A stretch of DNA of 64,000 bases from Verrucomicrobiaceae bacterium (GCA_028293825.1 JAQGNY010000048.1:11023-75022), one strand, 5' to 3'; positions 1-30,527 are shown, counted from the stretch's first letter. The notes: a model not told the origin generated them from the sequence alone. Made by a program: numbers and translations.

Positions 1-3000
1 TACATGATTTATACATCCGGCTCCACCGGCAAGCCGAAAGGCGTTGTCGTTCCGCATCGCACCATCGTTAATTTTCTTTTCAGCATGGCGGACGAGCCTG
101 GTCTTACTCCAGCCGATCGATTGTTGGCGGTGACCACGATTTCATTCGACATTGCGGTGCTCGAATTATTCTTACCGCTGTTCGTCGGTGCGCATTTAAG
201 TATCGCCAGTCGCGACGAAACCAAAGACGGGTTTCGTTTACTCGAACGCATTCGCGAGCAGGAAATTACCGCGATGCAGGCGACGCCCAGCACGTGGCGA
301 TTATTGTTTGCAGCCGGTTGGGAGGGCGGCGCCAATTTCAAAGTATTAACCGGCGGCGAAGCGTTGCCGCAAAATCTGGCCAATGAATTATTAAATAAAG
401 TCGGCAGCGTGTGGAATATGTACGGCCCGACGGAAACCACGATTTGGTCAACGGTGGCACGCGTCGAAATCAATAAACCAGTCACGCTCGGGCAACCGAT
501 CGCAAATACCGTATTGCGTGTGGTCGATGCCGGCGGTAGCAACGTGGCGCTCGGTGTGGCCGGCGAATTATTAATTGGCGGCGAAGGTGTTACGCAGGGT
601 TATTGGCGTCGTCCCGATTTAAATATCGAGCGGTTTTTAACGCTCGATGGCACCCGTTTTTATCGCACTGGCGATTTGGTAAAGCTCGCCGCGAACGGCG
701 ATTTGCTGTATCTCGGCCGTATGGATAACCAGGTTAAATTGCGCGGTTATCGCATCGAACTCGGTGAAATCGAAACGCGGTTGGCGAATCGCGCCGAGAT
801 CGCCGAAGCCGCAGTCGTGGTCCAGGATTTTGGTGACGACGATCAGCGGTTAGTTGCGTTTTATCGTCCGCGTCTGCAAGCGCAAATTACCGTTGCGCAA
901 TTGCGCGATCATCTCGCCGCAGCGCTGCCGTCGTTTATGGTTCCGCAGCAATTTATCGAACTCGAAAAATTCCCGCAGACACCGAACGGAAAAGTCGATC
1001 GCAAAACACTGTCGTCGCCGAACATAGATGCGGCAAATAATACTGCAGCGTCGCCAGCGGCTAATTCCGCTGGCGCAGAGTCGGCCGATCCGGTGGTGCT
1101 TGAGCATTTCCGCCGCTTTCTAAAACAACCGCAGCTGCATGCCAACGCCGACTTTTTCCAAAACGGCGGCCACTCATTGCTCGCTATGCGCATGGTGGCG
1201 GAAATCAATAACAGCATGAGCGCGCAATTGGCGCTGACCGATTTATTTCAGGCGCCTACCGCTGCGGCGTTATCGGTATTGCTCACGCATAAAAATGCCG
1301 ACCAAGAATTCGCTGAAAAGAAAGTCGCAAATGCATTGCACATTCCGCGCAAAGAAAAACGCGATCGGTTTTTAATGTCGTTGCAGCAGCGCCGCCTGTG
1401 GTATCTCGAGCAATTGGAAAAAACCGGCGTTGAATATAATTTGCCGGCGAGCTGGCGCCTGCGCGGAAAATTAAATGTCACTGCGCTGCAACAGGCTTTC
1501 GATATTTTATTCGCGCGCCACGATGCACTGCGTGTGAGTTTGATCGAAGAGAGCGACGGTTTATTTCAACGCGTGCGACCGGCGGTTGCCGGTGTTTTAC
1601 AAATTCAACTACTGAGCGGCGCGAATGAAAGCGAGCGCCTTGCCGCGCTGCAAATTGAATTGCAGCAGCGCAAAACTTTCCGCTTCGATTTAGCGAACGA
1701 CACCTTATTTCAGGCTGTACTTTTCACTGTTGGGCCGGATGATCATGTGCTTTTTGTGCTTGTACACCATGCGGTTTTCGACGGCTGGTCCTTCGATATT
1801 TTACTGGCGGAGCTCGCAGAGAGTTACAACGCGGCGCTGGTCGGACGCGCGCCACAGCTGCCGGAATTACCGGTGCAGTACGGCGATTTTTCAGAGTGGA
1901 TGCGTCAGCGCACCGAAGCCAGCGACGGCACGGATTTAAATTATTGGCTGCAACATCTCGCCGGTGATTTGCCTGTGCTCGATTTGCCGTGCGGTGGCGA
2001 GCGGCCGGAGTTTCAGGAGCATCGCGGCAGCGCGCTGGATTTCGTTTTCGATGTCGATGCGATGGCGCGGTTGCGCGATTTCGCGCGCCAGCAAGGCGTC
2101 ACGTTGTACATGGTGATGATGGCCATCTATAAAGTGCTGCTGTGGCGCTACAGCGGCCAGCGCGACATTATTGTCGGCACGCCGATTTCGGGACGCAATT
2201 TCACTGAAATTAACGATCTGATCGGATTTTTCGTCAACGCATTAACGCTGCGCGATCAGTTGGAGCCAGCACAGTCGTTCGTTGAATTTTTGCAGCAAGT
2301 CAAACAAACCTGTTTAAACGGCTTCGCGCATCAGGAAGTGCCGTTTGAACAGTTAGTCGAAAAATTAAATCCGCTGCGCGATTCCAGCCGCTCGCCGATT
2401 TTCCAAGTAATGCTGATGTATCAGGACATCAGCAACCGCACCGAAGTGTTCGAAGGCATCACGCGCGAGCAAGTCAATGTCGATCGCCCCGGTGTGCAAA
2501 CCGATCTGGATTTCTGGCTGAAATGGGACGGTAAAACGATGGCTGCAGGCTTCGAATACGACCGCGATATTCTGTCTCCCGAAACAGTTGAGGCAATGCG
2601 TGCGGATTTCAGCGCGCTGGTGCAGCGTGTGCCCGAGATGGCTGCAGCTTCGGTATGGGCGCTGGCCGATATGCCGAATGCCGGCGTGCAGCACGCGCTC
2701 GGTGCGTTGAATGACACCGCTACCGATCTGCCTGCCGATGCGCTGATTCACCGCTTGTTCGAGCAACAGGTCGAACGCACGCCGGATGCCATCGCCACCC
2801 GTTACCGCAATATTCGGCTCAGCTACGCCGAGCTCAATGCGCGCGCGAATCGGATCGCGAATTGGTTGGATCAGAACGGCATAAAACCGGGTGCGATGAT
2901 TGGTGTCGCGCTGGCGCCGTCGTCATGGCTGCAGCCGGTATTGCTCGCGGTGTTGAAGCACGGCAGCACCTATGTGCCGATCGATCCGCAATTCCCGCTG

Positions 3001-4614
3001 GAGCGCATTCGCTACATGATCGACAATTCCGGGCTCGCGCTGCTGATTTGCGACGATGCGCTGGATAGTCAATTAGTGGCCGGCACTGAAGCGGCAGTCA
3101 TTCATCTGGAGGCATTGAGCAAGGCGATAGCTGCAAACGACATCGCCAATTTAAATCGAGCCATCGCTGCGGAAAGCCCGGCCTATGTGATTTACACCTC
3201 GGGCTCGACCGGCTTGCCGAAGGGTGTGGTGGTAAACCATCGCGGCGTGACTAATTATTTATTGTCGATGGCGAAGCGACCGGGTTTCACCGCGACCGAT
3301 TGCATTTTGGCGGTGACGACGCTGTCGTTCGATATCGCTGTGACGGAGTTGTTTCTGCCATTGATCTGCGGCGGCAACAGCGTGTTGGTCGACCGCGATG
3401 TTGCTACCGATGGCGATTTGCTGCGCGAAATTATCGAAACCAATGGCATCACGTTGTTGCAGGCAACACCGTCGTCGTGGCGCTTGCTGTTAGGCGCCGG
3501 TTGGACCGGCGACCGTAGCTTTCGTGCGCTATGCGGCGGCGAAGCGCTGCCGCCGGAATTGATTCATCAATTACTGCCGAAAGTGGGCGAGCTGTGGAAC
3601 GTGTATGGACCGACCGAAACTACGGTCTGGTCCACCGCCTATCATGTCCGGAGTGTCGAGGACGCCGGTGTAATCGGTACGCCGCTGGCGAACACTAGTT
3701 GCTTCATTCTCAACGAACAGCAGCAGTTGGTACCGATCGGTGTGGTCGGCGAACTGTGCATTGGCGGTGCTGGCGTGGCGGCGGGTTATTTGAATCGCCC
3801 CGATCTGACGGCCGAGCGATTCATCGATAACCCTTTTGGCGATGGCAAGCTTTATCGCACCGGCGATATGGCGCAATTGCGCGCCGACGGTTTACTGCGT
3901 TATCAGGGGCGCAGCGATCACCAAGTCAAAGTGCGTGGTTATCGCATTGAGCTCGGCGAAATCGAATCCGCGCTGGCGCAATATCCGGCCATAACGCAGG
4001 CCATTGTGATCGCACGCGAATTTCAGCCCGGTGATTATCGCCTCGTCGCTTATGTGGTCGCGAAAAAAGACGAGCCACTCGTAGTCACCGAATTGCGCAA
4101 ATTCCTGCGCGATTATTTGCCGAGCTACATGTTGCCGCAGCATGTGGTTGCGCTCGATGCCTTGCCAATGACGCCGAACTTGAAGGTGGATCGCAAAGCG
4201 TTGCCAGAGCCGGTTATCGAGGTCGATGCCGAAGCGCGCCTGCCAACCACAGAGAACGAATTATTAATCGCGGCAATTTGGTGTGAAGCGCTGCAAGTTG
4301 AGCGCGTGGTGCTCGAGGATAATTTCTTCGACAGCGGCGGACATTCGCTGACGGCGGTCGATGCGATCCGGCGCGTCTATCAACAAACCGGGCATCGCTT
4401 TGAAGTGCGTGAATTCATCATGGAAACGCTGGAGCAGCTGGCGGCGAAGCTCGATCGCGGCGCGGCTCCGGCGGCGGGTTTAGCTGAAAGTGGGACTGGG
4501 GGTGCGGCCGTGAATGGGGCTACGAGTTCGCCGTTTTCCGCGCCCGTCGAGGCCGAAAACGGCCGGGGAGTGTTGGGGCGATTTATGCGAAAATTTTCGG
4601 GTAAGGGCCCATAG
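1..4614 (+). CDS. Non-ribosomal peptide synthetase, C-terminal part (A-T-C-A-T, no TE); 5' end lies outside the window
   Basis: A3 motif YTSGSTG(K/L)PKG twice, YGPTETT twice, YRTGD twice, A10 PNGKVDRK/PNLKVDRK; T domains FFQNGGHSLL and FFDSGGHSLT; C domain HHAVFDGWS. The frame is open from base 1. Confidence 0.97.
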   Translation, partial: YMIYTSGSTGKPKGVVVPHRTIVNFLFSMADEPGLTPADRLLAVTTISFDIAVLELFLPLFVGAHLSIASRDETKDGFRLLERIREQEITAMQATPSTWRLLFAAGWEGGANFKVLTGGEALPQNLANELLNKVGSVWNMYGPTETTIWSTVARVEINKPVTLGQPIANTVLRVVDAGGSNVALGVAGELLIGGEGVTQGYWRRPDLNIERFLTLDGTRFYRTGDLVKLAANGDLLYLGRMDNQVKLRGYRIELGEIETRLANRAEIAEAAVVVQDFGDDDQRLVAFYRPRLQAQITVAQLRDHLAAALPSFMVPQQFIELEKFPQTPNGKVDRKTLSSPNIDAANNTAASPAANSAGAESADPVVLEHFRRFLKQPQLHANADFFQNGGHSLLAMRMVAEINNSMSAQLALTDLFQAPTAAALSVLLTHKNADQEFAEKKVANALHIPRKEKRDRFLMSLQQRRLWYLEQLEKTGVEYNLPASWRLRGKLNVTALQQAFDILFARHDALRVSLIEESDGLFQRVRPAVAGVLQIQLLSGANESERLAALQIELQQRKTFRFDLANDTLFQAVLFTVGPDDHVLFVLVHHAVFDGWSFDILLAELAESYNAALVGRAPQLPELPVQYGDFSEWMRQRTEASDGTDLNYWLQHLAGDLPVLDLPCGGERPEFQEHRGSALDFVFDVDAMARLRDFARQQGVTLYMVMMAIYKVLLWRYSGQRDIIVGTPISGRNFTEINDLIGFFVNALTLRDQLEPAQSFVEFLQQVKQTCLNGFAHQEVPFEQLVEKLNPLRDSSRSPIFQVMLMYQDISNRTEVFEGITREQVNVDRPGVQTDLDFWLKWDGKTMAAGFEYDRDILSPETVEAMRADFSALVQRVPEMAAASVWALADMPNAGVQHALGALNDTATDLPADALIHRLFEQQVERTPDAIATRYRNIRLSYAELNARANRIANWLDQNGIKPGAMIGVALAPSSWLQPVLLAVLKHGSTYVPIDPQFPLERIRYMIDNSGLALLICDDALDSQLVAGTEAAVIHLEALSKAIAANDIANLNRAIAAESPAYVIYTSGSTGLPKGVVVNHRGVTNYLLSMAKRPGFTATDCILAVTTLSFDIAVTELFLPLICGGNSVLVDRDVATDGDLLREIIETNGITLLQATPSSWRLLLGAGWTGDRSFRALCGGEALPPELIHQLLPKVGELWNVYGPTETTVWSTAYHVRSVEDAGVIGTPLANTSCFILNEQQQLVPIGVVGELCIGGAGVAAGYLNRPDLTAERFIDNPFGDGKLYRTGDMAQLRADGLLRYQGRSDHQVKVRGYRIELGEIESALAQYPAITQAIVIAREFQPGDYRLVAYVVAKKDEPLVVTELRKFLRDYLPSYMLPQHVVALDALPMTPNLKVDRKALPEPVIEVDAEARLPTTENELLIAAIWCEALQVERVVLEDNFFDSGGHSLTAVDAIRRVYQQTGHRFEVREFIMETLEQLAAKLDRGAAPAAGLAESGTGGAAVNGATSSPFSAPVEAENGRGVLGRFMRKFSGKGP

Positions 4615-4733
4615 CCGGGTTTACTGCAGCGCTGCTGGTTGAGGGTGTTGGTTCAATGATAGAGTCGCGAGCGCGCCAAATTGGACGGTAGGATACACAG
4701 GCTCATGCTAAACAAAGAGATAAGGAAACAATC

Positions 4734-5372
4734 ATGACTTTTTTTCTCGACATGCGATTTTTAAAAGTAGCGGCTGTAGCTCTGACCACCGCATTGTTAG
4801 GCGCTTGCGCGGTTGAACATCTTGAGGCCGGCCCGCCGCCGACAATCAACGAGTTTGCGACCGATACCAATTACCGTATCGGTGTCGGCGATGAGTTGCA
4901 TGTGCAGGTGTGGCGTAACGACGAATTGTCGGCCAAAGTGCCGGTACGTCCGGATGGAAAAATATCGTCGCCATTAGTTGGAGATATCACCGCGGCGGGT
5001 TTATCCACGCAAGAGCTGGCCAAAGCAATTACCGAAAAGCTGGGCAATTACGTGCGCAATCCCGAAGTGACTGTCATCGTCACCAATCCAGCCAGTGCTG
5101 ATTTTCTGCGGCGTGTGCGCGTAACCGGCGCGGTGCGTACGCCAGTGACGGTGACTTTTCGCCAAGGTATGACGGTGTTGGATGTGGTGTTGCAGGCGGG
5201 CGGTTTAACCGAGTTTGCCTCACCGGGACGCGCTCGTTTGTATCGCACAGTTGAAGGCCGCACTAAGATTTATCCGGTCGATCTCGATGCGGTTCTGCAA
5301 AAAGGCGATCTGCGCACCAACTACACTCTGTATCCGTCTGATGTCGTGACGGTTCCCGAAAGAAGTTTCTAA
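4734..5372 (+). CDS. Polysaccharide export OPX/Wza-family lipoprotein (XrtA-system type, short form)
   Basis: Lipobox LLGAC; YRIGVGDELHVQVW and VRPDGKISSPLVG (Poly_export); SLBB domain; RBS AAGGAA. Confidence 0.93.
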   Translation: MTFFLDMRFLKVAAVALTTALLGACAVEHLEAGPPPTINEFATDTNYRIGVGDELHVQVWRNDELSAKVPVRPDGKISSPLVGDITAAGLSTQELAKAITEKLGNYVRNPEVTVIVTNPASADFLRRVRVTGAVRTPVTVTFRQGMTVLDVVLQAGGLTEFASPGRARLYRTVEGRTKIYPVDLDAVLQKGDLRTNYTLYPSDVVTVPERSF

Positions 5373-5394
5373 GTTTTTTGCAGCGGAGTTCTCA

Positions 5395-6918
5395 ATGCAA
5401 ACGTCGTTGCCGGAGCAATGGGCTAACGCCATCCTTAAAGAACTCAATCAACACAAAGGCAAAGTTGTGGTGTGCTTTGCCTTTGTAATTTGTATTGTGG
5501 TGATAGCAGGATTCTTGTGGCCGAAAAAATACGAAGCATCAACAATTGTTTTTGCTGACGATCAAAACATTATTAAGCCGTTGTTGGCAGGTCAGGCTGA
5601 GGTCACACGCCTGACCGAAAACGATCAGCTGTTAGCAGTACAGCAACGCATAACCTCGAACAATATTATGGAGCAGGTGCTGCTCGAGGCTAAGTTGGTC
5701 GACAACATCAATGATAAATACTCATTACAGCCGAAAATTCGCGCGCTAATTAATGGATTGAAAATCGATCAAGCCGGCCGCAATCGCATAAAGATTTCCT
5801 TTCGCGACAAAGATGCGAGCAAGGCCTACATAGTGACTTCCGCAATTACGAATGTGTTTATTCGCGACAGCGCTCGTACTAAGCGCGAGGAGAGCGGCGA
5901 AGCCTATACATTTATCGATAACCAAGTGAAAACGTACAAGGATCAATTACAGTCTGCTGAGGATAAGCTCAAAGAATTCCGAACTGCGAATCCTGGCGCG
6001 AGTGATGGCACCGGCTCGAACCGCGTTGGGGATTTTCGCACCTCGATTGAAAGCCTGACGCTTGACTTGCAGGTGGCGCGCGCGCGCCGCAATGAATTAG
6101 CGCAGCAGATATCGCATGAAGGCCAATTCATTGCGCAGAGCTACAAGGCGGATGTGTATCGCAATGCGTTGACGCAGGCGCAGGCGAAGCTCGATACCCT
6201 GCGTTTGAGCTATCAGGAGACATATCCGGATATCGTATCGCTCAAACAACAAATCGAAGATTTGCGGCGATCGATCACCCAGGCCGAAGGCGAACCATCG
6301 AAGGGCAATGATCGCAGCAGCGCCGCTAATCCGGTTTATCAAAAAATTAAATCTGATTTGTCCGACGCCGAAGTCAATGTAAAAACATTGGAGCTGAAAT
6401 TAGATTCCTCGCGGCGAATGCTTGATGGCGAGATGTCGAACTCGAAACAAAATGCGGAATATCAAGCTCAGCTGGCCGAGCTGTCGCGCGATTACAATGT
6501 CACGAAGCAGATTTACGAAGATTTGTTGGAGCGCAAAGAAAAAGCGCGCATGTCAGTGGCGCTCGATGTGCAGGGGCAGGGTTTAAATTACCGCATTCAA
6601 GAGCCGCCGGTTTTTCCGACCGCGCCGGTAGGTCTGCGCTTTATTCACTTTTATCTCGCCGCACCGATATTGGGTTTCTTAATTCCGATCGGTTTATTGA
6701 TCGCCTACATTCAGCTCGATCCACGCGTTCGATTTGTTGATCGGATGGAGCTTGTATTGCCAGCCTCTGTGCAAGTCATCATGGTGGTGCCGCATATGTC
6801 AACATCGATGGCCAAGCGTATGGCCCGCGCGGAATGGAATTACTTGGCGATTTTCATCGCCGTTGTGTTGGCGGCCTATGCAATTGTCGCTGTCGTACGC
6901 TTATCGGGATTGGTGTAA
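5395..6918 (+). CDS. Polysaccharide chain-length determinant/co-polymerase (PCP, XrtA-system type)
   Basis: N-terminal TM plus WPKKYEAS, long coiled coil, YQETYPDIVSLK, LSRDYNV, Pro-rich EPPVFP before C-terminal TMs. Confidence 0.92.
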   Translation: MQTSLPEQWANAILKELNQHKGKVVVCFAFVICIVVIAGFLWPKKYEASTIVFADDQNIIKPLLAGQAEVTRLTENDQLLAVQQRITSNNIMEQVLLEAKLVDNINDKYSLQPKIRALINGLKIDQAGRNRIKISFRDKDASKAYIVTSAITNVFIRDSARTKREESGEAYTFIDNQVKTYKDQLQSAEDKLKEFRTANPGASDGTGSNRVGDFRTSIESLTLDLQVARARRNELAQQISHEGQFIAQSYKADVYRNALTQAQAKLDTLRLSYQETYPDIVSLKQQIEDLRRSITQAEGEPSKGNDRSSAANPVYQKIKSDLSDAEVNVKTLELKLDSSRRMLDGEMSNSKQNAEYQAQLAELSRDYNVTKQIYEDLLERKEKARMSVALDVQGQGLNYRIQEPPVFPTAPVGLRFIHFYLAAPILGFLIPIGLLIAYIQLDPRVRFVDRMELVLPASVQVIMVVPHMSTSMAKRMARAEWNYLAIFIAVVLAAYAIVAVVRLSGLV

Positions 6919-7712
6919 TGGCTTCCGAAGACAAAGACAATCCGTTGGTATTGCGTCCGGTATTAGACCGGCCGGGTACCAATGTGCTGAACCTCGGCGC
7001 CAAGCCGCCGATGGAAGAAGAAGACGAAGCGCGCGAAAAAATTCGCCGCATGGCTGAGGTCAGCTGGCTTAATTATTCCGAGCTGGAAGAGTTCAAAATT
7101 ATTCACCCAGGCATGCGCCAACCGAAAGTCTTGAATGCATTTCGCGAGCTGCGTACGAATTTATACAAGCTGGCCGAAGGCAAAGAAAACTTTGTACTGA
7201 TGGTCACTTCAGTGGCGCCCGAGGGTGGGGCTAGTTTTATCAGCATGAATCTCGGCGCGGTGATTGCACTCGATGAAAGCAAAACGTCGATCGTGGTGGA
7301 TTGCAATGTATACGACCCGTCGCTGCATCGTATTCTGCCAGTCGAGCCCGATTTCGGTTTGGTCGACTATTTGGAAAACGTCACGCTCGAATTAAAAGAC
7401 GTGATTTATTCGACGGGTATTCGCCGCATGCGGATGATTCCCGCCGGCAGTCGGCGTCAGCCTGGTACCGAATTTTTTACGTCGACGCGAATGAAACGCT
7501 TCGTCACCGAGTTGCGCACGCGTTATCGCGACCGCTATGTCATTGTCGATGCGCCTTCGCTTGGCAGCAGCGCCGATGCGCGAATTTTGGCGGAAATGTG
7601 CGACTACGTTTTATTGGTAGTGCCGTCGGGTCGCGTTAATGAAGCCCAAATTGCGGCCAGCATAGAAGCAGTCGGCGAGAGCAAGCTTGCTGGCGTGATA
7701 TTCAACAATTGA
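6918..7712 (+). CDS. CpsD/CapB-type BY-kinase-like protein with degenerate Walker A
   Basis: FRELRTNL, MVTSVAPEGGASF, VVDCN, YVIVDAPS, GVIFN. ATG at 6918 overlaps the TAA of the upstream gene and is preferred over the track start at 6834. Confidence 0.85.
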   Translation: MASEDKDNPLVLRPVLDRPGTNVLNLGAKPPMEEEDEAREKIRRMAEVSWLNYSELEEFKIIHPGMRQPKVLNAFRELRTNLYKLAEGKENFVLMVTSVAPEGGASFISMNLGAVIALDESKTSIVVDCNVYDPSLHRILPVEPDFGLVDYLENVTLELKDVIYSTGIRRMRMIPAGSRRQPGTEFFTSTRMKRFVTELRTRYRDRYVIVDAPSLGSSADARILAEMCDYVLLVVPSGRVNEAQIAASIEAVGESKLAGVIFNN

Positions 7713-7764
7713 TTTTTTGTTTTAAATTATTTTTTAAGCGCGACAGCAGGCGAGAGATTTCGGA

Positions 7765-9069
7765 ATGAAAATTAAAATTACTGGCGCCTGTAAACCGGCT
7801 GTTCTGGGTATTTGTTTCAGTGGCTTGGCGCATCCAGCGTTTGCGATAAGCGATTTAACTTTTTCCGCCGGCGCGGGTTTGGAAGCGCACGACAATGCTG
7901 GGCTTGTACACAGTGATGAAAAATCCGATACCAAACGGCTTATCAATGCCGATGTCGGTTACAAGAAAACCGATGGCGCTGTCATTGTCGATATGGGATA
8001 CAACGCCGAGTACGGCGACTATCAGCATAATGTACAGAGCGATGAAACAGCGATTAACGGACGCACCGCGCTGACTTGGACCATTGCGCCGCGCCAATTG
8101 GATGTTGTTTTTTCGCATCAGATTTCACAGCAATTAGCCGACCGTCGCGGACTCGATGTTGCCAGCAATCGCGAAGAGCGCTCGGTGCTGACCGGCGGTG
8201 TCGATGGGTTTTTGCATTTATCGGCAGTCGATTCCTTAGTGTTCAGTCCGCGTGTTTCGGATATTCGTTTTCAAGACAGCGACGATTCGAATTCGCGGCG
8301 CGCCACCATGACGGCAACGCTGAATCACAAGCTCAGTCGTGTTTCCGCGCTGGATTTAACCGCCGGCTACGATCACGTCACCTTCGATGAGTCGAAGAAT
8401 GATTACAACTCGCCGAATGTAATGCTGTCTTTTAATACCGCGCTGGCGCGCCTTAGTTATCAAATTGGTCTAGGTGCGAATCGTATTAAACGCGATTCGA
8501 GTGACAGCAAAGATGTGAATGGTTCAACGGTGCGCGCTGCAATCGATTACAAAGGTGATGAGGGCAGCGATTGGGGCGCGTCGTATATCCGCCAATTAAC
8601 CGACAGCTCGATCGGTCTCTCCAATTTCGAATTGTCAGTGCCTAATTTTGAATCGAACGACAGTAACTTCGATCAGTTCGATATTATTCAAAGCAACAAA
8701 GTGAATGCGTATTGGCATCAACGTATCAATGCATCTAGTCAGTTATCGCTAAGCGCGGGCTTTGAGAAGCAAGACTATAAAGAAACGCCACGCGATCAAA
8801 GTATTGCGGATGCCCAGGCAGGCTATCAGTATTCGATTAATAGCCGCTGGTCAACGGGGGTGGATGCGCAGTTCGAGCGCACTAAATTTCTCGATGATCC
8901 GAAGTCAAAATACGATACGACGCGTGTTTATTTTAATGTGACTTATCGGCCGCTGCGCCCACTTGAAATTAAATTTTCTATCGGGCAAGACAAACGCAAT
9001 GCCGATACAAGCGCGCTGAGCTATACGGATAAAGTGGCATTGATTGGGTTTAAATATAAGTTTTTCTAG
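7765..9069 (+). CDS. Outer-membrane beta-barrel associated with polysaccharide export
   Basis: Signal peptide (AHPAFA), alternating amphipathic beta-strands, C-terminal FKYKFF beta-signal; lies in the OPX/PCP operon. Confidence 0.8.
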   Translation: MKIKITGACKPAVLGICFSGLAHPAFAISDLTFSAGAGLEAHDNAGLVHSDEKSDTKRLINADVGYKKTDGAVIVDMGYNAEYGDYQHNVQSDETAINGRTALTWTIAPRQLDVVFSHQISQQLADRRGLDVASNREERSVLTGGVDGFLHLSAVDSLVFSPRVSDIRFQDSDDSNSRRATMTATLNHKLSRVSALDLTAGYDHVTFDESKNDYNSPNVMLSFNTALARLSYQIGLGANRIKRDSSDSKDVNGSTVRAAIDYKGDEGSDWGASYIRQLTDSSIGLSNFELSVPNFESNDSNFDQFDIIQSNKVNAYWHQRINASSQLSLSAGFEKQDYKETPRDQSIADAQAGYQYSINSRWSTGVDAQFERTKFLDDPKSKYDTTRVYFNVTYRPLRPLEIKFSIGQDKRNADTSALSYTDKVALIGFKYKFF

Positions 9070-9072
9070 CGG

Positions 9073-10143
9073 TTAATAGGCGCCGTAACTCTGGCTGCGC
9101 TTATTGTTACCTTTAAATTTTTCATACAAATACTGTGCCCACGATACATAGCGAACGAGTTCATCAAAATTATCGGGCATGGTCATGCGCGGAATGGCGT
9201 ACCGATAATTCGGATCAGAAGCTATTTGCGGTCCATTCAAATAACCGGGTAAAGCGCTAAATGCGGCGCTTACGCCGGCGTCACGCAATTTATTAAACAT
9301 GCGCTCGTCATATTGATCTGCCTGCCCGCTGGGATAGCAGAAAATATTACTGGGCTGTTTACATTCCTGCTTAACGCGTTTGAATGATTCGGCAATTTCA
9401 TGCGATTGCTCATCGTCGGAAAGCCCGGAAACGATTCGATGTGTGACAGTATGCGGCGCAAATTGCATACCGCGCTCTTCCATCGTACGAATTTCATCCC
9501 AGGTTGCGGGCCGCTCATCCAGTGGCGGCGCTGACGGAATACGGATTTGCAGTTCTTGGGAAATTTGTTCAACGATTTGATACGCGTTATTGGCGCCGTG
9601 TTTACGAATTGCAGCGATAACAGGGCGATGCGCTTTCGGTATTTGCAAATTGAAGGTTTGCTCTGCGCTTGCGAATTTAACCGTCACAGATGTTGCGGTG
9701 GTATTTTTCAGTAAAAAATTTAATTGATGTTCCCACTGCCACAAGTTGCCGTCGATAAAACCGGTAATTAAAAAGCAGGTCGCCGGACAATCGAATTTTG
9801 AAAATATATTACCCGCCAGTGTGACTTGTTCAGCGAAGCCATCATCGAGCGAGAATGCCACCCATTTCTCGCGCTCCAATGTTCCATTCAATGTGCGTTG
9901 AACGGCTTCCTCCAGCGAAATGAAGCGATAATTGTTTTCACAAAGATAGTTCAAGCAGCGCTCTAAGTGCACAGGGCTCAATCCGTTGACGCCAGCCTCA
10001 GGCACTTCGAGGCGATGCAGCATGAATATCGTCACGTGCGCCGGCAACAGCTGCTTGGCGATGCTATTCAGCATACGCGAAGAGGCAACATTCTTTATTA
10101 ATCGGGCGTAACGAGTATTCATGAATATCCGTGTTTGAGACAA
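9073..10143 (-). CDS. Polysaccharide deacetylase (CE4/NodB family)
   Basis: FMLHR, FSLDDG, PHTVTH, FCYPSG, IPR motifs; start may be the ATG at 10122. Confidence 0.88.
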   Translation of the reverse strand: MSQTRIFMNTRYARLIKNVASSRMLNSIAKQLLPAHVTIFMLHRLEVPEAGVNGLSPVHLERCLNYLCENNYRFISLEEAVQRTLNGTLEREKWVAFSLDDGFAEQVTLAGNIFSKFDCPATCFLITGFIDGNLWQWEHQLNFLLKNTTATSVTVKFASAEQTFNLQIPKAHRPVIAAIRKHGANNAYQIVEQISQELQIRIPSAPPLDERPATWDEIRTMEERGMQFAPHTVTHRIVSGLSDDEQSHEIAESFKRVKQECKQPSNIFCYPSGQADQYDERMFNKLRDAGVSAAFSALPGYLNGPQIASDPNYRYAIPRMTMPDNFDELVRYVSWAQYLYEKFKGNNKRSQSYGAY

Positions 10144-10228: not shown

Positions 10229-11650
10229 TTAGGGAAGATTTTTGACAATTCGCGGCCCCAGCACGTTGGCTAGTACCACCGGCAACTTCTGCCAGCAGGC
10301 AATCAGCAGTCGAAACTTAGGGCTATCCGGTTTTAACGCAGGCAGTTCACCGCCATTACTCAACCAATAATGCCAGTAATGCTGGACCGGCTGGGCGCCC
10401 CATTGCCTCTTAAAATTGAACGTGCCCGAATCTTGCGTCGAGCGTCCAAAATCAAAAAAGCGATATTTGCGCTCGATACAAAACCCCAGTACGGCGTGAT
10501 ACAGCAGCATATTCATGTTTAATGTGTTGACGGTACGCAGCGTTGACGCCCACGGAATTTCCATCATGTCGCGATGGCCGAGCAAAAAAGCAGCAGCGAC
10601 TGGCTTGTTGTTGAGGCGAACGATGACCAGGTGCGATTGATTCGGCATCGCCGTCAAAATATTACGGAAAAACTCTTTTCCATAAACCGGTGTGCCCAAA
10701 TCCCGCATGTTAATGGAAAACACGCGATAGAAATCGTCGAGCAAGTCGAGATGGCCGATGGCAATTTGCGGATCTTCTCGCTGTGCACGTTTTATTTGTG
10801 CGCGGATTTTCGCGCCAATCTCGTCGTCGAGCGCATTGGTATTGTCCGGTAATATTTTGATCATCGACACTTTATCGGTGCGACGTGGCCATTCATTTAA
10901 TACGCGCGTGGCGCGTATTTCGAGGTGAGAAATACCGAGCACTTGCGCGCATTCTTGCGCCTTATTGAGCAGCGCAACTGTCGCCGCATTATTGTTTGTT
11001 AGCGGTCCGCCGTAATTGAAGAACGGCATCGACACGGCGAAGTCGCCAAATAAGCGGCTGCGCAAACGAACCAACGGCAATATCCCGCAGGTTGCACCAT
11101 GGGCAGTGCTGGCCAGCAAATATATAGAGGAGTGGTCGAAGCTGTCGGCGATTACATTGCGCCAGTGATAGCGGTGATAAAGGGCGGCGTGTGGGTGCGA
11201 GTCAACATATGCATCCCACACGCCCTGATCGCCATCGACTATTTCACGAACGGAGATCGGCCCGGCAATCTCCTGTTGGCTAGAAAGGTCGCGCTGATAA
11301 GCACCAAACTGTTGTGGGGTTAGCGCGGCATTATTTGTGTCATCCACAAATAAATTGCAGATTTGCTCCTCAATTTCTTTGCGGCGTAATTCGATGCGAT
11401 CCAGCTCTGCAGAAAGTCGCTGCATCTCCAGCTTGATCGGTTCGATGTCTAGCCCATCGGTTTTCGCCTGACCAAATCGACGCGCGCATTCTTGTTTGTT
11501 TAATTTGGCTTGTTTGAGTAAGGGCTTAAGTGTGTCGAGTATTTCAACCAGCTGTTCGACGTGAGTTGATTTTTCCGTTGCGATTAAAGTATTGGGCCAG
11601 CGCTGTGAACATGCTGCGCCAACATTTTTCAGGATGTCTTTAATCTGCAT
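10229..11650 (-). CDS. FemAB-family (XrtA/PEP-CTERM-associated) aminoacyl transferase with an N-terminal seryl-tRNA-synthetase-like coiled-coil arm
   Basis: WDAYVDSHP, SRLFG, SMPFFNYGG, NMRDLGTP, FDFGRS, FKRQWGA; extra ~125 N-terminal aa containing GQAKTDGLDIEPIKLEMQRLSAELD. Confidence 0.9.
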   Translation of the reverse strand: MQIKDILKNVGAACSQRWPNTLIATEKSTHVEQLVEILDTLKPLLKQAKLNKQECARRFGQAKTDGLDIEPIKLEMQRLSAELDRIELRRKEIEEQICNLFVDDTNNAALTPQQFGAYQRDLSSQQEIAGPISVREIVDGDQGVWDAYVDSHPHAALYHRYHWRNVIADSFDHSSIYLLASTAHGATCGILPLVRLRSRLFGDFAVSMPFFNYGGPLTNNNAATVALLNKAQECAQVLGISHLEIRATRVLNEWPRRTDKVSMIKILPDNTNALDDEIGAKIRAQIKRAQREDPQIAIGHLDLLDDFYRVFSINMRDLGTPVYGKEFFRNILTAMPNQSHLVIVRLNNKPVAAAFLLGHRDMMEIPWASTLRTVNTLNMNMLLYHAVLGFCIERKYRFFDFGRSTQDSGTFNFKRQWGAQPVQHYWHYWLSNGGELPALKPDSPKFRLLIACWQKLPVVLANVLGPRIVKNLP

Positions 11651-11665: not shown

Positions 11666-12574
11666 CTAAGCCGTGCAGAGTCGCACGGGCGTGGTTTCTA
11701 GCACCGCAGTCGATTGCAGGCTTTCACTGACCGTACCGAATGGGAATTCTTTGAGGAGCTTTTGTAAGCGCGGTAGACATTTTTCGAGATTGTTGTAATG
11801 GCGAAATCGCGACAATAAGCTCGCGCCACTTACGCGAGGTTGATCTGGGTCAATCTCCCATGGGTGCAGATAAAAAATTGCCGGAGTTTGTCCTGCATTC
11901 GTCGCGCGTTGAAATAACGCACGCGACAGCGCGTACGGATAAAGACGAAAGTAACCACCGCCAGCCGCCGGCATTTGATAGCCGAATAGCTTCGCCGTAG
12001 TCAGTGGAAATTCGATCAACGCGCCGTTCGCGGTTTCGACCTGATAGGGTGATGTGGGCGAGTTGGGTATTCCGTAGCGGTCGTGGTAAACCGGAAAAAT
12101 ACTCGAATCCCAGGTGAATCCAAGCTCGGCCAATATATCCAGCGCCCACAACGAGTCGCGCGTAATTGAATAGCTGGCAGCGCGATAACCGAGAACCGGC
12201 ACCTGCGCGATATCTTCAATCAATTGTTTGGAGCGAATTGTTTCTTCGCGAAATATCGCTGGGGTTTGTTTGTAAATAAGTTGATGACTGTAACCATGCG
12301 ACGCAATTTCGTGACCGCGTGTATTTATTTCGCGCACAAGATGCGGGTATCGTTCGGCAACCCAACCGAGTATAAAAAAAGTTGCTTTGATCTGGGCGGT
12401 ATCGAACAAATCGAGCAGGCATCGCGTATTGCGTTCAACCGTAGATGGCCATTGCTCCCATTGATCCGGCGAAATAACTTTTGCGAGAGCGGCAACATGG
12501 AAATAATCTTCCACATCGACTGTCATCGCGTGGCGAACGATTGGTGCAGTCGGCGAGGTTGCTGGCGTCGTCAT
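11666..12574 (-). CDS. XrtA-system polysaccharide deacetylase (DUF3473 type)
   Basis: MTVDVEDYF, ATFFILGW, EIASHGYSH, GYRAASYS, GGGYFR, YLHPWEIDP. Confidence 0.93.
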   Translation of the reverse strand: MTTPATSPTAPIVRHAMTVDVEDYFHVAALAKVISPDQWEQWPSTVERNTRCLLDLFDTAQIKATFFILGWVAERYPHLVREINTRGHEIASHGYSHQLIYKQTPAIFREETIRSKQLIEDIAQVPVLGYRAASYSITRDSLWALDILAELGFTWDSSIFPVYHDRYGIPNSPTSPYQVETANGALIEFPLTTAKLFGYQMPAAGGGYFRLYPYALSRALFQRATNAGQTPAIFYLHPWEIDPDQPRVSGASLLSRFRHYNNLEKCLPRLQKLLKEFPFGTVSESLQSTAVLETTPVRLCTA

Positions 12575-15125: not shown

Positions 15126-15178
15126 AATAAAAATCCTACGGTTAGCTGAGAACCATTTTAGAGAAAGCGCGCGCAAGT

Positions 15179-17555: not shown

Positions 17556-18122
17556 ATGCTAGAGCCAATAAAAAACTACATCAACGATAATTACGGCTCA
17601 AAACGTGGCCTTCTCAATACGAGTAGATCCTTATGGTTCACGCAAATCGGTGGTTACAAAGAATTTCAGGACATTGATTGGGATCGCGTACAGCGTTTGA
17701 TATTTATCTGTAGTGGCAATATTTGTCGCAGTCCTCTCGGCGACGTGTATGCAAAATCAAAAGGCTACAACGCCGAATCTTTCGGGCTGGATTGTGGCGA
17801 CGCCTATCCAGCGGACCCTCGAGCAATAAATTTTGGTGCCACGCTGGGCCTTGATCTACAAGGGCATCGCACCCGAAATATTGCGAACTATCGGCCTTCC
17901 AGTCATGACTTGCTAGTCGGTATGGAGCCATCTCACATGCGGCCGTTGGAAAAATACACGGATAGCTCCGTGCAGATTACCTTGGCGGGGTTATGGCTTG
18001 ATCCCGTAAGGCCATATCTTCATGATCCTTACAATGCTTGTCCCGCATTTTTTAATAAATGCGAACAAAAAGTAGTGGCTGCTACGAATAATTTGTTGCG
18101 CAAGTTAAAGACGCCTACCTAG
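17556..18122 (+). CDS. Low-molecular-weight protein tyrosine phosphatase family protein
   Basis: P-loop CSGNICRS; acid loop HDPY. Confidence 0.88.
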   Translation: MLEPIKNYINDNYGSKRGLLNTSRSLWFTQIGGYKEFQDIDWDRVQRLIFICSGNICRSPLGDVYAKSKGYNAESFGLDCGDAYPADPRAINFGATLGLDLQGHRTRNIANYRPSSHDLLVGMEPSHMRPLEKYTDSSVQITLAGLWLDPVRPYLHDPYNACPAFFNKCEQKVVAATNNLLRKLKTPT

Positions 18123-18124: not shown

Positions 18125-19420
18125 ATGGAAGATTTTTACGCGCTGCGCGTCAAGAAGATGTTCTCATGGTTTAAGCGAGAACATTTTTCGTTTTGGATGA
18201 TTTGCGCCTATTTATTTGTGGAATACGTGCGGCCGCAATCGATTATTCCGGCGTTGGATATTCTGCCTTGGGCAATGGTTTTTATTCTGCTCTCTCTGAT
18301 TGGCTTGCTAACCGATCCACGACGTAAGTGGGCAAGCGACCCCGCAAATAAATGGATGCTCTCTTTTTTTGTGGTAATTGTATTATCAAGTTTCCTAGCT
18401 TATCGACCCGACGTCTCTTACGCAAAGCTGAACTCTTTTTATACATGGCTAATTATTTATTTTCTTATTATTAATATCGTTTATACAAAAGAGCGGTTTT
18501 TTGTTTTTTTAGCTGTTTTTATCATCGCCACGTTTAAGATTTCTTTTGGCCTCTCTCTAGTGTGGGCTAAACGGGGCTTTAGTTTTACAACATGGGGGCT
18601 ACAAGGGCCGCCCGGGTTTTTTCAAAACTCGGGTGAATTAGCGATTCAAATGGCCGTTTTTTTTCCAATTGCATTTACAGTTGCAAAGCATCTCAAGCCT
18701 TACGTATCCAAAAAGATATTTTTTGTACTGGCTTTAATGCCGGTAACTGCCGCGCTGACAATTCTTGGTTCTAGCTCCCGCGGCGGTCAGATTGCTTTAG
18801 CCGCGCAACTAGTAATTATGTTTTGGCGAAGGCTGTTTAATCCAAAGATTCTCATCGGCGCAGTATTGGCGGGGGCAATCTTGTTCGCTTTGATTCCTCC
18901 TGAGCAAAAAGAACGGTTTAGCTCTACTGGTAACGATCGTACTTCTCAGCAAAGGTTGCTGTACTGGCAGCACGGTATGCAAATGATGCGAGAGCATCCG
19001 GGATTGGGTGTTGGATATTTTAACTTTGCGCCTTACTACGCCGATCACTTTCAAGGCGATATGCTTTATGAGTTCGTGGAGCTGCCGCACAATATTTTTA
19101 TACAAGTCGGTACGGATACCGGATTTACCGGGCTATTTATTTTCTTGTGCCTGATATATCGAACGGCTAAAACAAATATTGCGACCGCTCGTTATTCGAA
19201 AGCCTCGGGAAATCAGGGCGACTTATATTATGATCTGGCAAAAAGTTTAAATGTTTCGCTGTGGGGCTTTGTGGTCGCCGGCCAGTTCGTTACAGTGACT
19301 TACTATCCATTTATGTGGATTAATTTGGCTTTAACCGTGGCCTTGCACCGATCAGTTGTTGATGTGAAGCTACCGGCGGGGCAATTGAGTAGTGGCCCTC
19401 CTCGCGCAGCCAATACTTAA
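18125..19420 (+). CDS. O-antigen ligase/Wzy-like membrane protein (exosortase A-associated O-glycosylation ligase type)
   Basis: About 10-12 TMs, SSSRGG, GLGVGYFNF, LPHNIFIQV..DTGFTG. Confidence 0.85.
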   Translation: MEDFYALRVKKMFSWFKREHFSFWMICAYLFVEYVRPQSIIPALDILPWAMVFILLSLIGLLTDPRRKWASDPANKWMLSFFVVIVLSSFLAYRPDVSYAKLNSFYTWLIIYFLIINIVYTKERFFVFLAVFIIATFKISFGLSLVWAKRGFSFTTWGLQGPPGFFQNSGELAIQMAVFFPIAFTVAKHLKPYVSKKIFFVLALMPVTAALTILGSSSRGGQIALAAQLVIMFWRRLFNPKILIGAVLAGAILFALIPPEQKERFSSTGNDRTSQQRLLYWQHGMQMMREHPGLGVGYFNFAPYYADHFQGDMLYEFVELPHNIFIQVGTDTGFTGLFIFLCLIYRTAKTNIATARYSKASGNQGDLYYDLAKSLNVSLWGFVVAGQFVTVTYYPFMWINLALTVALHRSVVDVKLPAGQLSSGPPRAANT

Positions 19421-20554: not shown

Positions 20555-20589
20555 CTTAATTTTATTAGTAAATATTGTGCTTTAGCTTT

Positions 20590-25521: not shown

Positions 25522-25567
25522 TGATTGTTTTTGATTCCAGAGTCTCGCTCTATAAAGGGCGATAGTT

Positions 25568-26707: not shown

Positions 26708-26814
26708 GATCAGCCATTAGAATGTTGACTGGTAATGCTAGCCCAACCCCGCCAATAGTGAAATCGCGGCAGCATTTTTGATGAGATATTTATTTCGCGA
26801 CTACCAAGGGACTT

Positions 26815-29063: not shown

Positions 29064-29276
29064 CCGTAAGTTTTCAGTAATGATTTGTTAGTTAAATCGT
29101 AGTTGGTTTCAATTTAGAGCTTAATGAAGTTAAGCTAAATGTCAGGAAGCTGAAAATAGCTTTTCCGCACAGAGATTCACATGCATTTGCGCTCTCGCTT
29201 ATCCCTTTGAGGTTATCACTGAAATCTCTGCGTTATATTTAATTTATTATTGGTGTGTTTAATGCCAACGTCTCAT

Positions 29277-30527
29277 TCAAATAAAATCGGCTGGTGCGAA
29301 TGGCTTTAGTTGATGTGTTATTTCCGCTATCCAATATCCACTAAAAATTAATTTAGAAAAATTTTTTCGGAGTAACTGGTTGGGGGTTCTGGCAATACGC
29401 GAAATAAATTGATGTGTTTTTACTAATGCGTTCTCAATGGAAAATTTTATATGAGGACGCTGTAAGCGCCCTGAAAGTAGCGGTGGTTGTGCGGTTCCAA
29501 GTATGGCTTTGTACTGTGAGTCGCCTGCTAAGAAATTGTAAATGGCCATACCGAGTGCCGCGTTGTACTCGATGGCCAAGAGATGAGATACATAACCGGG
29601 ACGCAACATATTGCGATCCTCGGAAGCAAAGCCCGATTGCAACATCAACACGGTATTACGCCAAACAAAATTATATATATAGCCGATTGCCCTTTCCCCA
29701 CAGCAAATTCGCAGCATTTGGATTTCGCCTCGGTTAAATGCATTGCGTATCAGAGCGAGATGAAATTTTACCCATTTTGGATGAGCGAATGAGCCGGTTC
29801 TGCCGACACGGTTCCAGCGCTCCGTGTGCAACTGTCCCATTCGCATAAAATAGTCACAGGCTTGATCCACATCAGCGGCGCAATCTATTTTAAGAGTGCC
29901 TTCGTTGGAGTATTCCTTAAAAGAGCGTCGGATTTGCCAGCGCCGACTTTTACTCAATTTATTTAAAATAGATTCGACAGTCGTATTTGAATCGAGTGGT
30001 GTAACCCATATTCCGAGCGACCTATCGGTTATTTTTTTGAGCGCTAACCGTTGTTGATCGACCGAGTCATACGCTGCTTTCGGCACGTTCGTCAGGCGTA
30101 ATTCGTTCCAATCGAAAAGACTGTTATTTAAGTCGAAGATGAAGTGGTTTAGCGCAGCTGTTTCATGTCCTCTCTGCGTTAATAATCCGTTGTATTCAAT
30201 AAACATATTGAGATGGTGTTTACATGATTCATTTAATGTCACCATGGTCGACTTAAAAAAATGTCGCCGTTTTATGGTGTCATTACCAACCACGGCAAGC
30301 GCAATTAGCTCGCCTTTGAAGTAGCAACGATAGATAGATAGTGATGTGTGAGCTGATACAATTTGCAGCCAGGCGCCAATCCAGCTCCAGCTTAAAAAAA
30401 ATGAACAGTCTGACAAAGGCTCTAGTGCCCGCCACTCACGCTCCAGCGTTTCGATGCTGTCCAGAGCGCTGAAGCTGCCTTCATACCCTGACCCCTCTAT
30501 GTAGCTAATGGACTCCGTCAATTGCAA
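29277..30527 (-). CDS. GNAT protein of the CelD/BcsL (Fem-like Acetyltransf_6) family
   Basis: FFLSWSW, IEYNGLL, LHTERW, LQSGF, RPGYVSH, YNFLAGDSQYK. Confidence 0.82.
   Translation of the reverse strand: MQLTESISYIEGSGYEGSFSALDSIETLEREWRALEPLSDCSFFLSWSWIGAWLQIVSAHTSLSIYRCYFKGELIALAVVGNDTIKRRHFFKSTMVTLNESCKHHLNMFIEYNGLLTQRGHETAALNHFIFDLNNSLFDWNELRLTNVPKAAYDSVDQQRLALKKITDRSLGIWVTPLDSNTTVESILNKLSKSRRWQIRRSFKEYSNEGTLKIDCAADVDQACDYFMRMGQLHTERWNRVGRTGSFAHPKWVKFHLALIRNAFNRGEIQMLRICCGERAIGYIYNFVWRNTVLMLQSGFASEDRNMLRPGYVSHLLAIEYNAALGMAIYNFLAGDSQYKAILGTAQPPLLSGRLQRPHIKFSIENALVKTHQFISRIARTPNQLLRKNFSKLIFSGYWIAEITHQLKPFAPADFI

Follow-up and report, generated by a model that had tools for sequence, protein, structure and literature searches.

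A thioesterase-less PKS-NRPS line and an accompanying hydrolase pair in an XrtA/PEP-CTERM exopolysaccharide locus of Verrucomicrobiaceae

Introduction

What is the role of a nonribosomal peptide synthetase (NRPS) without a release domain that is located directly in front of the export genes of an exopolysaccharide (EPS)? This question is raised by a stretch of 64,000 nucleotides from a Verrucomicrobiaceae bacterium (GCA_028293825.1, JAQGNY010000048.1), called the window throughout (G000:C12:11023-75022 in our numbering of genomes and contigs). Its positions 4734-36799 are a canonical XrtA/PEP-CTERM EPS locus, as documented by a listing of open reading frames (ORFs) and by Pfam and NCBIfam profile scans with the curated NCBIfam cut-offs (Table 1). 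The PEP-CTERM/exosortase system has been known since 2006; to our knowledge, neither the attachment target of XrtA nor the roles of the associated ligase, acyl carrier protein (ACP) and hydrolase genes are known.

A first-pass annotation of the window had combined the NRPS with a FemAB protein, an ATP-grasp enzyme, a Fem-like GNAT and several deacetylases into a single system for the decoration of EPS with amino acids or peptides. The analysis presented here leads to a different picture. The NRPS is the last part of a hybrid line of polyketide synthase (PKS) and NRPS that is predicted to be primed with a fatty acid. Such lines are accompanied, in several phyla, by a pair of hydrolase-like proteins with an alpha/beta fold (hydr2 and hydr1) that are distant kin of families defined by their XrtA association. 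We consider it fairly probable that the line has its function within the EPS/XrtA system and that the hydr2/hydr1 pair off-loads it.

The assembly line in front of OPX

As the first-pass annotation had noticed, the NRPS lies upstream of the genes for the export protein OPX and the chain-length determinant PCP on the same strand, and a gap of 119 bp (4615..4733) separates its stop at 4614 from the OPX start at 4734. The Pfam scan of the ORF found no thioesterase (TE), reductase or terminal condensation (C) family. The gene is real, but the window contains only the last 1537 of its 2173 amino acids (71%). The ORF begins at G000:C12:9115, 1908 bases 5' of the window, and encodes two modules of condensation, adenylation and thiolation domains (C-A-T-C-A-T). 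In the upstream DNA (L001, C12:1-12000) it is preceded by a gene that was out of sight in the first pass and whose product of 2283 amino acids has the organization FAAL-ACP-KS-AT-ACP-aminotransferase (class III); its AMP-binding domain is FAAL-like, and the assignment of a second ACP rests on the presence of two PP-binding stretches. Together, the PKS and NRPS genes specify a line of 4456 amino acids. Further upstream on C12 are a cupin_8 protein and a TIGR04325 methyltransferase, followed by the end of the contig.

The ten-residue codes of the two A domains, DILQLGMIWK and DITQLGVVWK, both look Gly-like when set beside the Gly code, which we take to be DILQLGLIWK, and neither resembles a Ser code. 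Of the acylation with Gly and Ser that had been proposed, the Gly part fits these codes and the Ser part does not. The domain order points to a fatty-acid-primed hybrid PKS-NRPS with a beta-amino-fatty-acyl dipeptide as the predicted product, so that a lipo-dipeptide would take the place of the plain amino-acid decoration of the earlier proposal.

This is the sole NRPS/PKS locus found in the genome with the NRPS as query. The C-terminus of the NRPS ends ...GVLGRFMRKFSGKGP. The scan of positions 4300-5000 gave no terminator-like or sigma-70-like site, which fits read-through from the NRPS into OPX without showing it. A search among sequencing runs retrieved one DNA run that contains the stretch, which may stem from the source sample, and no RNA run. 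Matches to TGGCAC-N5-TTGC, presumably the sigma-54 consensus, with up to two mismatches were at chance level (77 versus 87 expected in the window, 15 versus 18 in L001, 22 versus 21 in L037), and the same scan found none in the 119-bp gap.

A variable slot between priming glycosyltransferase and OPX

Inside the XrtA locus, the line occupies a place of variable content (the slot) that lies between the priming glycosyltransferase (GT) and OPX. This position is seen on one contig in the relative G006 and inferred for the present genome. In G006 a single contig carries, on one strand and with small gaps, the priming GT, a formyltransferase-A-T protein with a luciferase-like monooxygenase in its A domain [F-A(MOx)-T], KS-AT-KR-DH-ACP, C-A-T, hydr2 and hydr1 (each about 300 amino acids), OPX and PCP. 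PKS/NRPS genes adjoin OPX in four relatives, namely G004, G006 and G012 of the same genus and G014 of a sister genus. Among 40 relatives, only G004 was found to have a true NRPS orthologue (71% identity), again with OPX on its 3' side (gap about 95 bp), and the other three harbor a different line 5' of OPX, which consists of F-A(MOx)-T, KS-AT-KR-DH-ACP and C-A-T. The content of the slot ranges accordingly from nothing, with the priming GT abutting OPX in eight relatives, to PKS/NRPS genes in five genomes including this one; two relatives have an AsnB-like amidotransferase, an acyl-CoA ligase (TIGR03098-like, under the cut-off) and a NadE-like gene at this place.

The left arm of the locus is located on a separate contig of the genome, C50. 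It comprises pgi, a TviB-like dehydrogenase, PMM, galU, GMP/PMI, ugd, fabA, fabB and a phosphopantetheinyl transferase (PPTase) of Sfp size, which belongs to the ACPS family (245 amino acids, G000:C50:14148-14885) and adjoins fabA/fabB. The priming GT (TIGR03013, 568 bits) follows, and then hydr2 and hydr1 (about 280 amino acids each), which run off the contig start. In G004, hydr1 is directly followed on contig C160 by a TIGR04325 methyltransferase with 73% identity to the first gene of C12. Because of this junction, the most probable order in the present genome, as judged from synteny, is sugar genes, priming GT, hydr2, hydr1, a gap, methyltransferase, cupin, PKS, NRPS and OPX. The priming GT and the nucleotide-sugar genes, which the first-pass annotation had noted as absent and suggested to seek further upstream, hence lie 5' of the PKS/NRPS genes.

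Two observations on the relatives may be added. Contig C160 of G004 (L045) carries F-A(MOx)-T, a 244-amino-acid protein without family, KS-AT-KR-DH-ACP, hydr2, hydr1 and the methyltransferase; this genome has both types of line, and its FAAL-PKS end, C-A-T-C-A-T and OPX are located on other contigs. The NRPS-less relatives G011, G002 and G010 have an ACP, an acyl-CoA-dehydrogenase-like gene and an amino acid-[ACP] ligase after fabB, in place of the PPTase.

The hydr2/hydr1 pair

Orthologous hydr pairs (46-70% identity) are present only in the five genomes with PKS/NRPS genes adjoining OPX. More distant pairs are always located beside a carrier-loading enzyme. G005 encodes an A-T-hydr2 fusion of 845 amino acids followed by hydr1 (L048, C7, 7127-9664), G029 an NRPS followed by the pair, and G002 a hydr2-hydr1 fusion of about 605 amino acids behind an ACP, an acyl-CoA-dehydrogenase-like protein and an amino acid-[ACP] ligase (L042, C2, 7997-9814). 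The same kind of fusion is found in G010, whose arrangement is homologous by size and similarity, and in G013. The hydr pair of G022 was considered as a canonical pair and rejected, being under the cut-off and having neighbours without NCBIfam family.

The two proteins differ at the nucleophile elbow. hydr1 has G-L-C-S-G where solved hydrolases have G-L-S-M-G, and its C113 aligns with their Ser. The residues C113, D126, D136 and H260 do not vary among 26 sequences, and C113 and H260 are likewise constant in seven canonical members of TIGR03100 that are 22-27% identical to hydr1. The elbow of hydr2 is G-L-R-x-G, with Arg at the nucleophile position, in seven hydr2 sequences, seven canonical partners and the fused form. 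In the prediction of the hydr1-hydr2 complex the ipSAE was 0.92, compared with 0.00 for the best control, the runs shared at least 79% of the contacts, and the partner pLDDT was at least 88; the ipSAE mark is reached by 58 of 80 solved complexes and by 2 of 110 mismatched pairs. The predicted interface includes hydr1 residues 256-265, around H260. According to these models, hydr1 and hydr2 probably form a heterodimer.

Spread of the cassette and linkage to exosortase genes

A scan with the hydr1 alignment, one genome per species, found 225 places. The best 80 were kept, and the locus counts given here refer to these 80 with flanks of 10 kb. Judged by their record titles, these loci belong to Gammaproteobacteria (Spongiibacteraceae, Cellvibrionaceae, Marinobacter, Oleiphilus, Competibacter and others), Acidobacteriota, Gemmatimonadota and Myxococcota. 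The organization of the cassette is well conserved: hydr2 is located directly 5' of hydr1 in 78 of the 80 loci, and a megasynthase ORF (more than 600 amino acids) is found in 66 of the 67 loci with at least 3 kb of upstream sequence, in 52 immediately upstream on the same strand. A type I line (formyltransferase-A-MOx-T plus KS-AT-KR) is the only one in 41 of the 80 loci, and a type II line, as in this genome, is the only one in 22 (FAAL/KS-AT-aminotransferase plus a C-A-T-C-A-T protein of 2144-2166 amino acids). Two loci have both types, and 15, most of them on short contigs, have none of the two.

Strict EPS/exosortase markers are present within the 10-kb flanks of 16 of the 80 loci, or of 15 of the 55 with at least 8 kb downstream. 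A weak EPS linkage, read from these marker counts (18 of 80, or 16 of 80 by the strict count), was rejected after whole-genome positions showed that flanks of 10 kb are too short. An exosortase match (PF09721) was found in 37 of 50 cassette genomes and is strong in 30. In 16 of these 30, the strong exosortase lies on the contig of hydr1 at a distance of 0.4-58 kb, and in 15 it is within 40 kb; for genomes of 4-5 Mb, the chance that two given genes lie no more than 40 kb apart is estimated at roughly 2%. A separate set of five genomes contains exosortases in four, with three Marinobacter at 12-20 kb from hydr1 by coordinates. Two acidobacterial loci have a priming GT, a kinase, a TIGR03006-like gene and OPX adjacent to the cassette, without an exosortase match, and TIGR03006-like genes adjoin the cassette in several other lineages. 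The synteny that the first-pass annotation had proposed to look for is thus documented at two levels, by PKS/NRPS genes beside OPX in four relatives and by exosortase/EPS linkage in other families and phyla.

The final carrier-bearing protein ahead of the hydr pair frequently terminates in a variable linker plus a short, basic and hydrophobic stretch with the pattern G-(L/F)-(L/F)-x-(R/K)-L-F-G. This LFG-type tail is common to type II NRPSs, type I PKSs and single C-A-T proteins (strict pattern in 25 of 61, more by eye; last modules in L052-L127) and may represent a docking element. Homologues of the cupin_8 protein of C12 (JmjC-like, L001 870-1826) are encoded just 3' of hydr1 in type II loci, among them those of Marinobacter (L084, L085, L099, L057, L115); the protein may act on the product of the line as a tailoring hydroxylase.

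The other amide-forming and deacetylase genes

The FemAB protein, the ATP-grasp enzyme, the Fem-like GNAT, the three CE4 deacetylases and the DegT aminotransferase were all recovered by the family scans where the first-pass annotation had placed them. Their union with the NRPS into one system did not survive the comparison with relatives, as the FemAB, ATP-grasp, second GNAT and CE4 genes are present with and without it. The ATP-grasp gene occurs in 13 of 41 relatives, including G011, G002, G009 and G010 without a PKS/NRPS insert; a co-variation of this gene with the NRPS was dropped for this reason. The second GNAT (29277-30527) has a homologue of 48% identity in the NRPS-less G010, and the two further CE4 genes, the ATP-grasp gene and the phosphatase gene are conserved in the loci of G012 and G006. 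The FemAB, ATP-grasp, second GNAT and CE4 genes therefore belong to the XrtA locus of this lineage irrespective of the NRPS and form no single module with it. An inspection of the N-termini of the three CE4 proteins revealed no obvious signal peptide, and these enzymes look cytoplasmic. No member of the exosortase-associated N-acyl amino acid synthase (NAS) family TIGR03694 is encoded in the locus; two such genes (196 and 151 bits, cut-off 112) are located on other contigs (G000:C37:39317-39961 and G000:C11:24943-25557).

A proposed route and its alternatives

If the line serves the EPS/XrtA system and the hydr pair is its release factor, the following route can be proposed. The FAAL would load a fatty acid, KS-AT would extend the acyl chain, the aminotransferase would convert the beta-keto group into a beta-amine in the style of iturin and mycosubtilin, and the two Gly-type modules would add a dipeptide. 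Cys113 of hydr1 would take the chain from T2 as a thioester. hydr1 would act as a heterodimer with a catalytically dead hydr2, perhaps docked via the basic-hydrophobic tail of the NRPS, and would pass the chain to an acceptor. By analogy, the Cys-His pair and the thioester donor suggest transfer over simple hydrolysis; polyhydroxyalkanoate (PHA) synthase and arylamine N-acetyltransferase are Cys-based acyl-transfer analogues. As acceptor we would prefer an amino sugar in the lipid-linked repeat unit of the EPS, from which the apparently cytoplasmic CE4 enzymes would have removed the N-acetyl group; a lipopeptide-bearing polysaccharide would be the result. Sugar N-acylation is favored because the locus encodes three CE4 proteins without obvious signal peptides and TIGR03006-like genes lie near the cassette elsewhere; the identification of this acceptor, drawn by analogy, is tentative and in our judgment falls somewhat short of an even chance. 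A bolder version, which we regard as possible and rather doubtful, is that the Cys/Arg-elbow heterodimer constitutes a new class of trans-acting off-loading transacylases for TE-less lines, which moves the chain to a de-N-acetylated EPS sugar or makes the lipid acceptor of the exosortase. If true, the polysaccharide or protein of the XrtA matrix would carry covalently bound lipid in several phyla, with interchangeable lines feeding one conserved transferase.

Several results weigh against the favored reading or reduce its force. The best NCBIfam matches of the two proteins are far under the cut-offs, with 69.7 bits for hydr1 against TIGR03100 ('hydrolase 1, exosortase A system-associated'; cut-off 168.45) and 99.3 bits for hydr2 against TIGR03101 ('hydrolase 2'; cut-off 202.75). 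The complex prediction was made from shallow own alignments, and since fused forms exist, a pass was likely. The fold search with the hydr1 model (pLDDT 88.1) retrieved only generic Ser esterases and lipases at a TM-score of about 0.55-0.6, which is uninformative on transfer versus hydrolysis, and no specific transferase or thioesterase family emerged from it. The A-domain codes were taken by hand from the FD, TPS, GGE, NxYGPTE and GKxDR anchors. The starts of C50 and C12 do not overlap at their contig ends, so that their join is by synteny only. No exosortase match was found in 13 of the 50 cassette genomes and only a weak one in 7, most of them metagenome-assembled genomes in which absence is unproven. 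In a complete Ketobacteraceae chromosome the exosortases are more than 1 Mb away from the cassette, which can therefore exist unlinked. The linkage counts overstate independence because the genomes are kin; the excess of exosortase proximity is real, its size overstated.

The same observations bear on the alternatives. The first-pass annotation had named, as the case that would count against it, a release partner for the NRPS with a diffusible product. A partner is found in the hydr pair, and a TE or reductase is not found in the line. With the pair as a trans-acting hydrolytic TE, the line would release a diffusible surfactant or signal of the beta-amino-fatty-acyl-Gly-Gly type, co-located and co-regulated with matrix genes. 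Such a product would agree with the alpha/beta-fold proteins that accompany every line, with the esterases and lipases as nearest structural matches of hydr1, and with the cassettes in genomes where the exosortase was not found or lies far off. It would also agree with the linkage of NAS genes to PEP-CTERM/exosortase loci described in the accessible text of two papers (PMC7293339, PMC11072679) and with the two NAS genes of the present genome. However, a Cys nucleophile with a dead partner would be unusual for a plain hydrolytic TE, the line of G006 is co-directional between priming GT and OPX with small gaps, and no lipopeptide-specific exporter was seen in the slot. We regard a free lipopeptide, the main alternative, as rather unlikely. 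Less probable still is the original proposal that NRPS, FemAB, ATP-grasp and GNAT jointly add Gly, oligo-Gly and Ser to de-N-acetylated sugars of a peptide-bearing and possibly cross-linkable matrix. In its favor, each enzyme family that it names is represented, both A codes resemble the Gly code, the CE4 proteins seem to be cytoplasmic and the NRPS lies within the locus. Priming by FAAL, PKS and aminotransferase nevertheless implies a lipidated product and neither A code is of Ser type; FemAB and the TIGR03006 deacetylase belong to the core of XrtA loci throughout, and the occurrence of ATP-grasp and second GNAT in NRPS-less relatives argues against co-variation. We therefore rate this model as improbable.

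We regard each of two further explanations as very unlikely. The membrane-anchored nucleophile for the XrtA-mediated transfer of PEP-CTERM proteins might be the lipopeptide, which would have a free beta-amine, or the acyl product of related lines, in analogy to the lipid attachment by archaeosortase. The 16 of 30 genomes in which the cassette lies 0.4-58 kb from a strong exosortase match, the amine created by the type II aminotransferase domain and the 17 PEP-CTERM matches of this genome would suit such an exosortase acceptor. The type I lines share the hydr pair yet have no aminotransferase, and the acidobacterial loci have EPS genes without an exosortase match. Alternatively, a secondary-metabolite cluster unrelated to the EPS locus might have come to lie beside it by chance, for example in an insertion hot spot, as a slot that is variable, empty in eight relatives and otherwise filled in two, and an NRPS with a true orthologue in 1 of 40 relatives could suggest. 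Chance would hardly account for two different line architectures in the same slot, for a linkage that recurs in other families and phyla, for accompanying hydrolases that are kin of families defined by XrtA association, or for the absence of a second NRPS/PKS locus among the matches of the NRPS query in this genome.

Gene content of the locus

The features of the window are compiled in Table 1. The locus that the first-pass annotation had delimited at 1-30527 is real, but its end was set too early, since PrsT, PrsR and PrsK form the right end of the XrtA locus and extend it to 36799. XrtA-specific companions over the cut-off are TIGR03027, TIGR03007, TIGR03019, TIGR03006, TIGR02917, TIGR02915 and TIGR02916 as well as the priming GT on C50 (TIGR03013). 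The best family of the exosortase is TIGR03109 (XrtA) with 186.8 bits, which is under the cut-off of 208; the general family TIGR02602 is over it (132.3 versus 105.55 bits). The tyrosine autokinase probably starts later than annotated, because the proteins of relatives align only from residue 29 onward. The genome contains 17 PEP-CTERM matches (TIGR02595), all over the 16-bit cut-off, and none of 14 control genomes was positive.

Some neighbouring observations complete the inventory. The 291-amino-acid protein at 20590-21465, in the middle of the glycosyltransferase block, has a hydrophobic signal-like N-terminus and a weak homologue in G012 (26% identity). A large DUF1631/PacR-like protein (36899-39112, minus strand, PF07793, 659 bits) is located directly beyond PrsK. 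Six PEP-CTERM matches stand in a row at G000:C34:87720-97612 in ORFs of about 634-679 amino acids, which suggests a tandem array of paralogues, and two more are found on C50 (22471-23102), near the left arm of the locus.

Table 1. Features of the window, with positions counted from its first nucleotide
Feature	Position	Strand	Evidence or remark
NRPS, 3' part (last 1537 of 2173 amino acids, 71%)	1..4614	+	Condensation, AMP-binding, AMP-binding_C and PP-binding domains
NRPS A1, remainder	1-996	+	approximate domain bound
NRPS T1	about 1090-1290	+	motif; GGHSL serine at 1174-1176
NRPS C2	1369-2634	+	approximate
NRPS A2	2758-4182	+	approximate
NRPS T2	4267-4446	+	approximate
NRPS tail, 55 amino acids	4447-4611	+	ORF ends 55 residues past T2
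OPX, XrtA/PEP-CTERM-system polysaccharide export	4734..5372	+	TIGR03027, 202.8 bits (cut-off 180); Poly_export and SLBB domains
Chain-length determinant (PCP), XrtA-system	5395..6918	+	TIGR03007, 327.2 bits (cut-off 278.85)
XrtA-associated tyrosine autokinase	6834..7712	+	TIGR03018, 199.3 bits, under cut-off 230.65
Outer-membrane beta-barrel protein	7765..9069	+	PF10082, 29 bits; TIGR03016 weak
CE4 polysaccharide deacetylase	9073..10143	-	PF01522
FemAB-family XrtA/PEP-CTERM-system protein, core locus gene	10229..11650	-	TIGR03019, 353.5 bits (cut-off 260.35)
XrtA-system polysaccharide deacetylase (CE4 + DUF3473), core locus gene	11666..12574	-	TIGR03006, 405.3 bits (cut-off 276.2)
Exosortase with fused EpsI-like C-terminal domain	12649..14112	+	TIGR03109 (XrtA), TIGR02602, PF09721
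Third CE4 deacetylase	14109..15176	-	PF01522, 82.7 bits
GT4 glycosyltransferase, stp2-like	15179..16276	+	profile scans
ATP-grasp enzyme	16298..17482	-	PF15632
Low-molecular-weight phosphotyrosine phosphatase	17556..18122	+	PF01451
Wzy/O-antigen-ligase-like membrane protein	18125..19420	+	PF04932; TIGR03097-like, under cut-off
Glycosyltransferases	19436-20443, 24376-25521, 25568-26707, 26815-27945	mixed or not given	profile scans
Hypothetical protein, 291 amino acids	20590-21465	-	without Pfam or NCBIfam family
FkbM methyltransferase	21866-22516		profile scans
Flippase	22638-24119		profile scans
DegT-family aminotransferase	27924-29063		profile scans
Acetyltransf_6 (FemAB-like GNAT)	29277..30527	-	PF13480, 80.3 bits; no NCBIfam family
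PrsT	30614-33310	-	TIGR02917, over cut-off
PrsR, sigma-54 response regulator	33322-34683	-	TIGR02915, over cut-off
PrsK histidine kinase	34754-36799	-	TIGR02916, over cut-off

Comparison with known systems

The closest known counterpart is the XrtA-associated cassette of ligase, ACP and hydrolases (TIGR03098, TIGR03100, TIGR03101), computational families without assigned function, which shows the same order of hydr2 and hydr1, the Cys and His in hydr1, the Arg elbow in hydr2 and a likewise close position to a carrier-loading adenylating enzyme. Presumably it also includes a TIGR03099 decarboxylase. In the eight canonical TIGR03100 loci compared, the hydr pair is accompanied by a stand-alone ligase in six and an ACP in two, together with genes of the XrtA system. 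In the present locus, by contrast, a PKS-NRPS of 4456 amino acids replaces the stand-alone ligase (TIGR03098) and the ACP, and the hydrolases are far under the family cut-offs. The literature searched, with subscription papers and supplements outside its scope, yielded, as judged by title and abstract, no description of PKS/NRPS genes in an exosortase locus. In its accessible text, PMC3584217 only lists TIGR03100 for Bcam1334, and a term search in that of PMC1569441 (Haft 2006) came back empty for acyl-CoA, hydrolase, FemAB, decarboxylase and acyl carrier.

The uncharacterised XrtA-associated ligase/ACP/hydrolase cassette and the published linkage of NAS and exosortase are hence already known. 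Three aspects appear to be new: the TE-less PKS/NRPS lines of two architectures in the place of the ligase, the hydrolase pair with Cys and Arg at its two nucleophile elbows as a probable heterodimer, and the constancy of this pair as partner of carrier-bound acyl groups across phyla. The acyl and peptidyl groups in question are of very different origin, and the lines have no other release domain. The T2-bound lipo-dipeptide and Cys113 make the role of the pair, and the link of lipo-amino-acid chemistry to matrix assembly, testable. For genome mining, with hydr1 relatives at 225 places, this means that widespread 'orphan, TE-less' hybrid clusters probably represent cell-surface or matrix chemistry and not antibiotics.

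PHA synthase (PhaC) resembles hydr1 in its G-x-C-x-G elbow, its conserved His and its thioester donor, whereas sequence and fold show no detectable closeness, the top fold matches of hydr1 being Ser esterases and lipases. The Nod factor pathway, with the deacetylase NodB, the acyl carrier system NodF/NodE and the acyltransferase NodA, follows a deacetylate-then-N-acylate logic. Its likeness consists in a CE4 deacetylase beside a dedicated carrier-bound acyl donor, and the TIGR03006 protein is a weak NodB match (43.4 bits). The analogy is only functional: here the transfer would be a task of the hydr pair on a Wzx/Wzy-type polymer, and no NodA was seen, a search for it not having been made. According to the accessible text of two studies, NAS genes cluster with PEP-CTERM/exosortase loci and make long-chain N-acyl amino acids (PMC7293339, PMC11072679). 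The predicted product of our line would likewise be a lipid-amino-acid conjugate specified by exosortase/EPS-clustered genes. NAS is a single GNAT-like enzyme that uses acyl-ACP, in contrast to the thiotemplate PKS-NRPS described here with its predicted beta-amino fatty acid and two residues. The loading part of this line has its model in the iturin and mycosubtilin synthetases, in which acyl-AMP ligase, ACP, KS, AT, ACP and aminotransferase provide a beta-amino fatty acid starter for the C-A-T modules that follow. Iturin synthesis ends with a terminal thioesterase and a cyclic heptapeptide, whereas the line of the present genome has two modules, no terminal TE and no macrolactam, and is set among the genes of an EPS locus.

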